This document shows, piece after piece, positions 8,161-32,082 of a stretch of DNA of 64,000 nucleotides; within the stretch, counting starts at the first letter, position 1, and each line of letters begins with the position of its first letter. Position numbers and translations under genes: made by a program. This DNA comes from Octopus vulgaris (lineage: Eukaryota): positions 31,682,001 to 31,746,000 of the forward strand of contig OX597825.1 of the NCBI GenBank assembly GCA_951406725.2, given 5' to 3'. A model generated the notes under the pieces. That model was given only the letters and a program-made list of their open reading frames with translations, did no database searches and was not told the origin of the DNA.

Positions 8161-8388
8161 CATATATATATACATATATATTTTTTTTTTAATAATATAT
8201 TATCATTAATATTAGGAAATCAATATCAGAAAACTCCTCAGAAAGATATACAAGTGTGAAAAATAATTGTTGTATTAAAAATATATAAATAGATAAATAT
8301 AAATTTGTATAAAAATATATGTAAATATGTATAAGTATAAATATATAATGTATATGACAGTTTAAAAGTTTTGAATGAAGTATTTAAA

Positions 8389-8482
8389 GCATCTTACAAT
8401 TGTTTCACAGAAGTGCTGTCACTATAATGAAATCCTATATTGATAAGCATTTATAGACAACTCTTCTGCTCTTCAGAGATAT
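8389..8482 (-). ncRNA. Hammerhead motif, canonical core, long stem II
   Basis: Minus: TATCT-CTGAAGA-GCAGAAG..CTTCTGT-GAAA-CAATTG-TA-AGATG; stem II extends via TGTCTATAA. Confidence 0.7.
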
Positions 8483-8684
8483 AAAATTTGAATTTTGTAT
8501 AACATATTGAATGGTAGTTTTTTTTTTGTTTTTTTTTATAAATTTGAAGTAATATTATAAAATGGTGTTTGTTTGAAAAATAAATTAAAAATTAAAAATT
8601 ACTGCTTTTGATGAGAGTCTTTAAATCCATATATACTTCCTAGGTTAGTCTTCTGCAATAATCCATAATATTCATATGTAAAAT

Positions 8685-18578: not shown

Positions 18579-19351
18579 ATGCTAGCGTGAAAATAGAGAA
18601 TAAGTGGAGCAGGCACAAGAAAAGAGCCAAGATTGCAAACAACAAGATATGGTACAAAATGTGACGAGTCAAAAGAAGATAATTACAAGAAATATAAATG
18701 GGCATGCACAAAATTTTGACAAAATGTTCAATGGCAAAGCATTGGAATTGTTAAGAAAGCAATTATCTATCACAGGAAACACAAAAGATGTCATATATAT
18801 ATCGTTGTGGTACATTTTTGGGGCCAATGCACAGTACGGCCTGTCCTGGTGACATAAGGTTTGTTTGTGTGTGTGTGTGTGAAGGCAGCAAGCTGGCAGG
18901 AACGTTAGCACACTGGGCTAAATGTTTAGTGGAATTTTGTCCATCTTTACATTTTGAGTTCAAATTCTGCCAAGGTTGACTTTGCTTTTCATACTTTGGG
19001 CAAGGACCAGTTGAGTACTAGGTTTGATGTGATTCATTTATCCCCAGCTTCTGAAATTGCTGGCCTTGTGCCAAAATTTAAAACCAATATATACATATAT
19101 ATATATATTTTTTTTTTTTTAAATTAAGGATAAAATCTTTATAAGAAATTATCAGTAGTTAGCGTGAAAAACCTCGTAAGAGAAAAAATCTAAATTTTTC
19201 CACTTTGAAAATATTTATTTATATTATATAGAGGGTACTATTATTCATAGGTACCGCATGCTAGGAGAGACTCTTGCAGTCAAAACTACTAAAATAAACA
19301 AATTGTACCAAATGCAAAACTTCAAAGCAAGTCATTTAAAAACAGAATTTA

Positions 19352-19415
19352 GTTACATATCACCTGTGATTTCGCAATCAATGCAGAATATGCATTCTAT
19401 GCTCTTCAGTGCAAC
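19352..19415 (-). ncRNA. Type I hammerhead motif, canonical core (left arm)
   Basis: Reverse complement of 19526-19589. Confidence 0.75.
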
Positions 19416-19525
19416 GAACTCAAGACATGTAAGGAAAAAACACAACATAGCATACCCGACAGCCAACCGTAGAATTCGTCATAGCATGTACGAATGTTTA
19501 TCTTTACATACGAATGTTTATCTTC

Positions 19526-19589
19526 GTTGCACTGAAGAGCATAGAATGCATATTCTGCATTGATTGCGAAATCACAGGTGATATGTAAC
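19526..19589 (+). ncRNA. Type I hammerhead motif, canonical core (right arm)
   Basis: GTTGCA-CTGAAGA-GCA..TGC-GAAA-TCAC ag GTGA-TA-TGTAAC; all three helices pair; AUA site. Confidence 0.78.
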
Positions 19590-19710
19590 TAAATTCTGTT
19601 TTTAAATGACTTGCTTTGAAGTTTTGCATTCGGTACAATTTGTATATTTTAGTAGTTTTGACTGCAAGAGTCCCTCCTAGCGTGCGGTACCTATGAATAA
19701 TAGTACCCTC

Positions 19711-19757
<47 letters not shown>

Positions 19758-28964: not shown

Positions 28965-29931
28965 TTCAGTTGAAATACTTGATGCTATCGGTTCTATCTT
29001 TTGACTTTTCGATGTCTAATTCTCCAAATTTCTTGATGGAATCTCATCAATAGTAATGTTGTTGTGAAGAGATGTCTAACAAAGGGCAACCACAAAGTGT
29101 GTGTGCATATGTGTGTGTGTGTGTGTGTGCATATGCGTGCGTGTGCATGTGCGTATGAAGCTACCCTACTCCACCCCTCTAGTACCACCCCATTACATGC
29201 TTCCTGTAATATGGAATATATGGAATTCTATAAGAAAACATGTAATTAAAAGCCAAGTTGCTGCAGAGAATCTTGGAAAACAAGTCAGAACGATCGTTAA
29301 CATCCTCATCATCATTGTTATCATTTTTGTTATCATCTTTATTGCTGTTATCATCATCATTATCATTATCATTATGACCATCATCATCATTGTCATCAGT
29401 GAGTGGCAGCAGCAGCAGCATTATCATCATTGTCACGAATTGTTTTTTCTTCACCATCATCATCATCTGTCATCATCCATCATCAGCAAGGTTAGTAGTG
29501 TTATCATCATCACTTTCAACATTTTAAACAGCAGTAATGCCTCCTCCCCTTCCTCCTCCACCTCATCCTCCTCCTCCTCCACCTCATCCTCATCCTCCTC
29601 CACCTCATCCTCATCCTCCTCCACCTCCTCCTCTCCTCCTCCTTCCTCATCCTCCTCCACCTACTCTCCTTCTCCTCCACCTCCTCCTCTCCTCCTTCTT
29701 CATCCTCCTCCACCTACTCACCTCCTCCTCCTACTCCACCTCATCTTCCACCTCCTTTCCTCATCCTACTCCACCCCTCCTCCTCCACCTCCTCTCCTCC
29801 TCCTTCCTCACCCTCCTCATCATCCTCATCCTCATCCTCATCCTCCTCACCACCACCACCACCATGCATATATACTTACATACAGACACTTATGCATACA
29901 TATGTATTTTATATATGTGTGTGTATATATA

Positions 29932-29971
<40 letters not shown>

Positions 29972-30003
29972 TGATGATGGTGATGATAATAATAATAATA
30001 ATA

Positions 30004-30044
<41 letters not shown>

Positions 30045-30423
30045 AATAATAATGATAATGCCCCAATGCTCTGATGCAGTACCAGACAGTGTGCTCTCAT
30101 GGCTTCTGATCTTAACCGATTGGAAGTGTTATCATGTACATTGTTTTGTCTTGGTATAAAAGATGGTCTACAGCAAATATTCTGCTCAATACCACAGATT
30201 TGCCTGTCAGTTGTTTGACCATAACCAGTTGAGCATGTCCCTTGGTGGCTGACGATATGTGCATCTCTGATCATGAGCAGAAGTAGTGGGGAAGCATCAT
30301 AGCCCATGTGTTGAAAGGAATTCTTAGAGGTTTGGATAATTCACCTTTGGAAACATGGATGGTTTGTTCAATATCCTTAAACAATCCTTATTCAGGGACC
30401 TTTTGAGCGGAATGGGCTACTTG

Positions 30424-30726
30424 AATCCTTTCCCTTGTCATAAGGGAAAGAGATGGATAGAATGAACCAATCTAACTTAAAATCCTTATTGTTGTCTTTA
30501 AGATACCAAACCAAGTTACTAAGCCCTGTGCTATTGCGTTTACTGCTATCCCTAAATGAAGAATAATGATTGGAAATTCTCTTAAATAACTGGGAAGAGG
30601 AAGTGCCAATATAGAAATAGACATCAGTACCTGAAGAAATTCTACATTGGTATATAGAATTCTTGATCTTAGAATTATTAGACATAAATATAATTCTGTT
30701 GGGGTTGTTCTCAGAGACCAAAACTG

Positions 30727-30760
<34 letters not shown>

Positions 30761-30950
30761 ACTATGGGAAGGGCTGGTATTAACATAATTAATGTTGGAA
30801 CTCTCAGTAAATGAACTTTTATTTAGCAGACTGGAGTTATGAGAAGATATAATTTGTGAAAGATTCTTTGTGTTGGAGAAGGCAACTCTAACTATATGAG
30901 AATTAATAATTGAATAATATCTAGAATTTTTGGAAAGTTCTTACTAATGT
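30424..30950 (-). pseudogene. Penelope-like element linker plus GIY-YIG endonuclease fragment
   Basis: ORF 30392-30721: NSIYQCRI..FYIGTS..LFKRISNHYSSF..NSTGLSNLVWYLK..LDWFIL..PY; upstream KNFPKNSRYYSIINSHIVRVAFSNTKNLSQIISSHNSSLL matches the PLE RT-EN linker. Confidence 0.8.
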
Positions 30951-30955
30951 ATATA

Positions 30956-30986
30956 TACTTCTTGTTAGACTTCAAACTTTTTCAAT

Positions 30987-31063
<77 letters not shown>

Positions 31064-31095
31064 AATTGAAAAAGTTTGGAGTCTAACAAGAAGTA
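30956..31095. repeat. Near-perfect 140-bp palindrome: 33-bp arms around (TA)n
   Basis: TACTTCTTGTTAGACTTCAAACTTTTTCAATTA / TAATTGAAAAAGTTTGGAGTCTAACAAGAAGTA, 1 mismatch. Confidence 0.92.
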
Positions 31096-31395
31096 GTACA
31101 GTTGGACATTTATTTTCAATCACTACAATTGTATCCACACAATGTGGTTCTCCAGGCATGCAGGTACTTGATTATGCAACCATTTCCCTGCATTATGAGA
31201 TCTAGTTGTGCCTCCTCAGGTGATATGTAAATATTTTCTCTGGAGAAAACACAACTAGATCTCATAATGTAGGGAAACAGTTGCATAATTAAGTACCTGC
31301 ATGACTGGAGAAATACCTTGCACAGAAATAATTGTAGTGATTAAAAATAAATGTCCAATTGTACTCCTCCTTGCTCCTTCAATTTTTTTCAATTA
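31063..31395. mobile_element. Fold-back insert with hammerhead motif at 31119-31224 (-)
   Basis: Arms share CATTATGAGATCTAGTTGTG/CACAACTAGATCTCATAATG; minus: ATCAC-CTGAGGA-GGCACAA..TTGTGTG-GATA-CAATTG-TA-GTGAT; right arm retains GAAA-TAATTG-TA-GTGAT. Confidence 0.75.
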
Positions 31396-32082
31396 TATAT
31401 TCACACATGACAGATGGCCAAATGCAAACCTGGAAGAACGTATAATACTTCTACTCGATAGCACAGAGTAAATCTGAAGGTGAACAATCTTTATACTGTA
31501 CTCTACTACAGCCTTAACAGAATATACCATAACTGTGTGTGTGTGTATGTGTGTGTGTGTGTGTGCCTGTGTGTGTGTGTCTGTGTGTGTGTGTAACATA
31601 TATATACATAAAAGCCTAAAAAAATTTACATACATACTTGCATACAACATGTATAGGTAATCATGCACACATACACACACACATACACATATATATGCAT
31701 GTATGTTTATATATATGTATGTATGCATGCATGTATGTATGCATGCATGTATGTATATATGTATGTATGTATGTATATATGTATGTATGTATGTATATAT
31801 GCACACACGCATAAATGTGTAGATGAATATGCAAATATACAGCCAATGGCTTTCTATTCACAACAGAACAATGGAAAAGTTTTTCTATGTGTTGAAAGAA
31901 CAGACCGAAGTTCTGCAGGGAAGTTGTAAATATTTAAACAAGCAAATGGGTTCCTTTCATTTGAAGAAAGCTTTCCAGAGAAATTTATATTTCCATTGCT
32001 ATTAGATGTTTGATTACAACTATCAGAATATTAGCCATTCTGCTGCTTACTGCTAGTTTATTTGTAGAAATATATTATACAT

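Follow-up and report, generated by a model that had tools for sequence, protein, structure and literature searches.

The locus analysed here, part of a 64,000-nt stretch of Octopus vulgaris DNA (the window), is dead repeat DNA in which pieces of a Penelope-like element of the Hydra clade lie in one TA microsatellite. Its coding relic and its hammerhead ribozyme probably (about 65%) belong to one octopus Hydra-clade family and represent two dead insertions in a single (TA)n tract. Hydra elements in octopus are already published, and the cluster is unusual only in the lost zinc-binding linker of its lineage and in the long extra arm of its hammerhead. The features are given in Table 1.

Table 1. 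Features of the relic and hammerhead locus, in window coordinates
Feature	Position	Strand	Remarks
High-copy repeat, 5′-truncated (SINE- or LINE-3′-end-like)	30060..30424	-	loose ends at 30421/30424
Hydra-clade coding relic	30425..30949	-	end of the RT thumb/linker and GIY-YIG endonuclease, to just before the C-terminal CxxC..E; 5′-truncated
TATATA	30950..30955		separates the truncated 5′ end of the relic from the inverted 33-nt terminus; leftover target or filler, no coding homology
33-nt 3′ terminus of the hammerhead family	30956..30988	+	inverted relative to the relic, ends at (TA)n; 32/33 identical to 31095-31063
(TA)n target tract	30989..31062		
Arm 1	31063..31240	-	3′ end of the element, truncated on its 5′ side; ends 61 nt past the cleavage site of the hammerhead
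Type I hammerhead	31119..31224	-	core 31219-31213; 77-nt stem II region 31212-31136; palindromic stem III
Arm 2	31240..31395	+	inverted copy, truncated at a decayed core; 83% identical to arm 1
Family sequence past the internal TATAT	31396..31520	+	probable tail / 5′ UTR equivalent

A reading of the letters alone (the sequence-only reading) had recognised the linker/endonuclease fragment of a Penelope-like element, ending near 30950 on the minus strand, and homology indeed covers 30949 down to ~30425, the frame shifting by 1 nt near 30930. The stop-free frame (30392-30940(-), 182 aa) is matched by 886 proteins at E<=0.001, the best 150 of which were listed. The relic gives a profile match of 159 bits (iE 3.9e-50), the sole such match in the six frames of the window, in which the profile search found no further pieces of the protein family. 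The nearest named proteins (P0001, P0002, P0003 and P0151) are Octopus sinensis gene models that consist of pieces of this retroelement and are mis-named as myb-like, dyrk1-like or DDB_G-like. Pfam and PDB sequence searches returned nothing significant, and no GIY-YIG match in Pfam, and a fold search with an alignment model (A3, whose first row is P0129 and not the relic) weakly placed I-TevI, T4 EndoII and UvrC on top (best E 0.15). A search for relatives among viral contigs found none. P0129 is a Hydra-type protein annotated in the pipefish Nerophis ophidion, from a phylum outside the clade list given in the available text of PMC8557442. On its left side, the relic adjoins the high-copy repeat flush, which cuts off the endonuclease. 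The repeat has an (ATT/ATC)n tail at ~29930-30059 and a summed contig depth in run X1 of 1e6-7e6, versus 1e3-4e4 over the relic. At the loose ends, the family sequence of the repeat past the junction has a CTGAAGA box.

By sequence comparison, the relic is identified as the C-terminal GIY-YIG endonuclease of a Hydra-clade element. The clade was described with the features RWK, DKT, CxC..C and CxxC..E..N..CxH (Craig et al. 2021, PMC8557442). Among long homologues, P0151 is the closest: its identity is 62% to one part of the relic and 76% to the other, and it has RT motifs 4-7 upstream of the linker and endonuclease; this RT4-7 region aligns (E 5e-20) with the full-length P0011, a 720-aa protein that has all four features. 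The position of the endonuclease downstream of the RT is thus assigned to the relic through P0151. The N-terminal part of the RT, with RWK and DKT, lies further upstream than any subfamily protein extends. The CxxC and CxH around the conserved E/N fall beyond the cut end of the relic and are found elsewhere in the subfamily, CxxC..E in P0004 and CxH in P0022, P0014 and P0038. As in Hydra, the endonuclease has no CCHH motif, two termini adjoin (TA)n and the 5′ end of the relic adjoins TATATA.

From the motif ST.LS...W.LK, the sequence-only reading had instead proposed a Naiad-like clade. Naiads share with the locus the (TA)n target, inverted arrangements and presence in octopus (PMC8557442). 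However, the T.LS..W.LK motif of the relic occurs in the published Hydra alignment, and P0151 has its RT before the endonuclease, whereas Naiads are described with an N-terminal endonuclease containing CxxC and CCHH and without canonical hammerheads (PMC8557442). The relic has neither a CxxC between GIY and YIG nor a CCHH, and the N-terminal endonucleases of both Naiad_Obim and Naiad_Ovul have CxxC and the His ligands. A Naiad-like element is therefore extremely improbable, and this assignment was abandoned.

The relic does not carry the CxCX5C linker of Hydra, and has an (AAC)n run at ~30729-30760. In a midpoint-rooted endonuclease tree made of search hits alone (the relic and the 45 best of 151 matches, aligned over at least 55 aa), it groups with P0002, P0003 and P0151 (99/94), and this group is nested in a clade of 10 rows (98/93). 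In seven of the eight subfamily rows that cover the linker, none of the four linker cysteines is present at the aligned places, while the eighth, P0013, has a CVC within an unaligned insertion; the cysteines are kept in the sister row P0005 and in P0107 of Argonauta. In this family, a long Asn-rich linker has replaced the cysteine linker. The tree label 'no_CxC' also takes in proteins that start after the linker, and the count of changes based on it was set aside. On these alignments, the missing CxCX5C is read as a derived loss inside the Hydra clade and, because it is common to independent copies, it would be a trait of the active ancestor and not the result of decay. The linker has been connected with (TA)n targeting (Craig et al., PMC8557442), a proposed role that a subfamily without the four cysteines puts to the test.

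The hammerhead had been placed correctly, at 31119-31224: the core box CTGAGGA, stem I (ATCAC/GTGAT), the palindromic stem III and a cleavage triplet GTA ending at 31124 are all present. In this copy, however, A14, an invariant position of the hammerhead, is mutated at 31133, which gives GA(U)A instead of GAAA. The majority letter of the family at 31133 restores GAAA in 109, 100, 111 and 103 contigs of four DNA runs (counts up to 128), and at 31329 in arm 2 the majority letter likewise restores the core (65, 41, 54 and 50 contigs in four runs, among the places listed). The family core is thus canonical (CUGANGA, GAAA and UH with three stems) and both copies in the window are defective; in arm 2, the first box is decayed and the 5′ strand of stem I is lost. 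CpG decay was considered for four adjacent differences between the arms but was given up, since it disagrees with the majority letter at 31323. Were both arms transcribed together, they would pair with each other. The family hammerhead may self-cleave, and its palindromic stem III suggests dimer-dependent cleavage, with which such stems have been linked (PMC4209133).

A purine-purine mismatch closes stem II. The 77-nt stem II region folds as a long interrupted hairpin (-22.7 kcal/mol, a stability reached by 17 of 300 shuffles). For the whole motif, the predicted fold does not stand out from those of shuffled sequences (z -0.24). An internal loop GAAA/AGUA in this region is reminiscent of a bulged-G motif. 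Rfam gave no hammerhead match at the gathering score in the window, and its 33 matches on 30900-31600 were all microRNA-hairpin or other chance ones. In related loci, stem II spans 10-25 nt in 52/52 strict matches, and up to 36 nt after inspection of the missed loci. Spans of 104 nt in L002 and L008 were pattern artefacts, for which the strict descriptor gives 14 nt.

The two termini that had been seen to face each other across one (TA)n do so at 30988 and 31063, and form the sole palindrome among the 52 (TA)>=6 runs of the window. The hammerhead fold-back was also recovered, with arms of 131 nt (31087-31217 and 31243-31373) that are 83-84% identical. Arm 1 is covered by paralogous contigs over 31085-31240. 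Three termini had each been thought to end in TA; all three copies are present, but the third and more diverged one, at 31362-31395, is not an end, since paralogous contigs continue to at least 31520. Four contigs, two of them from one run, bridge 31395 at ~81-84% identity and reach 31482-31520. The sequence from 31396 to 31520 is quite probably a tail, judged from these contigs, and with at least 120 nt would be longer than the tails of relatives. Paralogous contigs also join the hammerhead arms to the tail region near 31446 (31230-31489 and 31306-31446), suggesting further inverted junctions.

The relatives examined are the best 80 of 571 Hydra-type loci, many of which are one family seen in several samples. 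Of the 51 loci with at least 300 nt downstream, 38 have, by the strict descriptor, a hammerhead 74-345 nt past the ORF match, followed by 30-60 nt and a TA-rich end like that in the window (e.g., L011, L013 and L036). Any inverted self-match was found in 15 of the 80 loci, and inverted copies of their own family lie at the 5′ side of L008, L011, L016, L042 and L076. Five related loci contain a full copy whose 5′ UTR and start codon follow directly on a true upstream pLTR. Downstream of the hammerhead, a bulged hairpin (GCTC-stem-loop-TH-GAGCAC) is found in 49 of the 80 loci, with 79 sense versus 4 antisense matches (e.g., L006:3461-3548; L025:1076-1162 and 3487; L036:5-85 and 2417). In all 58 distinct inner segments, the first inner positions form a pair (37 C-G, 21 T-A), and 43 have the second pair as well, versus a shuffled mean of 22 and a maximum of 31 in 1000, the relatedness among segments being uncorrected. 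These pairs were counted by script; MAFFT alignments of the hairpin and of the hammerheads were poor, and no covariance model was made. Rfam had no match for the hairpin in the 8 of the 80 loci that were submitted to it. The hairpin is also visible by eye in the published Hydra consensus ends.

The hairpin is present twice in the 5′ UTR, with the second copy 8-40 nt before the start codon in 16/16 loci inspected. Thirty-nine of the 80 loci have classifiable 3′ ends, of which 13 end before hairpin 1, 21 contain hairpin 1 only and 5 are tandem; 35 loci were too short and 6 had no hammerhead. The end classes and the twin hairpins together indicate that the tail repeats the element's own 5′ end, each class ending just upstream of a hairpin. 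The hairpin is a candidate RT-positioning signal. The two 3′ end classes fit the two internal start sites of a Poseidon element of Anolis; in vitro, this element made double-strand cuts from which both strands were extended, primed internally at two sites and gave a tail (PMC11167929). The termini at 30988 and 31063 are short-class ends. No recognisable copy of the hairpin was found in 31395-31545 or elsewhere in the window.

Hydra families insert into (TA)n and carry hammerheads (PMC8557442), and by analogy the arrangement could have arisen as follows. The GIY-YIG endonuclease would cut both strands of a TA tract, and at each cut end the RT would start copying the element RNA from an internal position, downstream of the hammerhead. 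Both cDNAs would stop early and be joined at their truncation points, leaving a head-to-head pair with its 3′ termini outward. In the first insertion, the long left arm would be the relic, its 3′ part later lost at the high-copy repeat, and the right arm the 33-nt terminus. In the second, arm 1 would have been primed at the near site, and arm 2 further downstream, hence its tail. The palindrome would then be two neighbouring termini facing each other across leftover target. Two head-to-head insertions in one tract, relic with 33-mer and arm 1 with arm 2, is the simplest reading.

The sequence-only reading had seen here a link between ribozyme and Penelope-like element. The element, the hammerhead and the TA targeting hold, and the link is probable, but the reason given, a hammerhead on the same strand as the relic and upstream of it, does not provide it. 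Arm 1 was rejected as the canonical pLTR upstream of the relic: between the two there is no 5′ UTR or start codon, and they are separated by the (TA)n and the inverted 33-mer. If there is a real link, it lies in the inverted 33-nt terminus next to the truncated 5′ end of the relic. No contig bridging relic and hammerhead was found among the 32 pieces listed, which skip the TA tract, and a DNA pattern search of metagenome contigs gave 0 matches. None of 157 proteins reads through into the hammerhead, nor does any of the 1, 0 and 3 matches from word-indexed searches.

Several observations weaken the assignment of relic and hammerhead to one family. Arm 1 is matched better by the 33-mer (32/33) than by arm 2 (83%), the relatives' hairpin is unrecognisable in 31395-31545 and the tail is longer than theirs, while the flush joint between relic and high-copy repeat would also be expected of a template-switch chimera. 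The TATATA at the junction of relic and 33-mer, moreover, is what separate hits on a TA tract would leave, and an unrelated 3′ end at 8350-8630 likewise has TATATA at its 5′ side. Hence the hammerhead unit may be the 3′ end of another TA-targeting Hydra family, with relic, 33-mer and fold-back inserted independently. This co-insertion is realistic because the window contains two other hammerhead families (at 8.4 and 19.5 kb), making three in 64 kb, and a second octopus Hydra family with a short hammerhead, Hydra-1_Obim, has been published (PMC8557442). We nevertheless consider it unlikely: the 33-mer and the truncation are 6 nt apart, its orientation is the usual one of 5′-attached inverted copies, only 3 of ~40 TA units fall on the relic side of it, and relic and hammerhead have summed contig depths of similar magnitude, although such depths are not a copy number.

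A non-autonomous, retrozyme-like hammerhead unit without a coding region, mobilised in trans by Penelope-like machinery, is improbable. It would account for the many paralogous contigs on hammerhead and tail, for the other fold-back junctions of paralogues (31209-31273 and 31205-31247) and for a long stem II and tail unlike those of autonomous relatives, and animal retrozymes were proposed to derive from pLTRs (10.64898/2026.07.22.740005). However, the tandem array of units is absent at the locus, the 15 joints listed (there are 140 more) contain none from the tail to the region upstream of the hammerhead, and spacing and terminus match autonomous Hydra 3′ ends. Quite improbable, too, is a palindrome that arose secondarily, through local duplication (by fold-back synthesis, or by conversion at a TA cruciform) or as an assembly chimera, which would make the 33-mer uninformative on the relic. 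The 32/33 identity, compared with 83% between the arms, would be expected of it, and the palindrome has no independent cover, as reads skip the TA tract. But the two termini differ inside and at the TA junction, the internal difference of the 33-mer being the arm 2 letter; only 1 of 52 TA runs is palindromic; and a near-identical contig from another run spans the fold-back itself. One Hydra-clade family for both relic and hammerhead is thus preferred.

This family, if it comprises both relic and hammerhead, resembles the published Hydra clade, including Hydra-1_Obim of Octopus bimaculoides, in the C-terminal GIY-YIG without CCHH, the T.LS..W.LK helix, the RT motifs (in P0151), the (TA)n target, the type I hammerhead, the palindromic stem III shortly before the terminus and the 5′-attached inverted copy, as described for Penelope-13_HM (PMC8557442). 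It differs from the clade in its long Asn-rich linker in place of CxCX5C..C, in the 77-nt stem II region, versus the short stems and loops of published Hydra (File S2), and in the probable tail of at least 120 nt. Compared by eye, it also differs from Hydra-1_Obim, two short motifs being absent from the supplement of PMC8557442. The Poseidon element PAc of Anolis provides a mechanistic model, in which the hammerhead is not needed for insertion in vitro, but belongs to another clade and primes inside the ORF, in an AC-rich stem-loop (PMC11167929). Non-LTR retrozymes, as far as described in PMC7229834 and 10.64898/2026.07.22.740005, share the type I hammerhead and a short, high-copy non-coding stretch. 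They are tandem repeats with a hammerhead per unit, whereas the copies at the locus are inverted and truncated.

Tentatively, an octopus Hydra lineage may have amplified and kept (TA)n targeting after losing its linker, with a remodelled RNA in which a structured 77-nt stem II is present and the bulged hairpin is lost or replaced. If so, the linker would be dispensable for TA targeting, and elements with and without linker and hairpin would form a natural pair for how Penelope-like RTs choose internal start sites. The value of the locus is comparative, and the strongest side result is the hairpin of the relatives, rather than the window: the twin hairpin is a candidate RNA signal behind the two start sites and the tail. 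The literature searched contained no mention of this family, of a linker without the cysteines, of the long stem II or of the twin hairpin; Repbase/Dfam, subscription papers or the O. vulgaris repeat library deposited on Zenodo (PMC13282606) may hold the family.

Two further hammerhead loci lie in the window. At 8350-8630(-), with its core at 8476-8395, the 3′ end of another family has an intact type I hammerhead with the same palindromic stem III, a 63-nt stem II hairpin (1 of 300 shuffles as stable) and TA-rich sequence on both sides. Long stem II hammerheads escape Rfam and are found in two of the three hammerhead families of the window; cephalopod ribozyme counts may therefore be too low. 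In squid, 235 hammerheads were counted, without detail in the text available (PMC6962438). A third family forms a hammerhead fold-back at ~19200-19735, whose arms share 93% identity over 237 columns; its cores lie at 19532(+) and 19409(-), and its ends are TA-rich. A 20/23-nt match (E 5.6e-4) between 31217-31240 and 19575-19597 pairs the antisense 5′ flank of the arm 1 hammerhead with the 3′ half of the 19.5-kb hammerhead.
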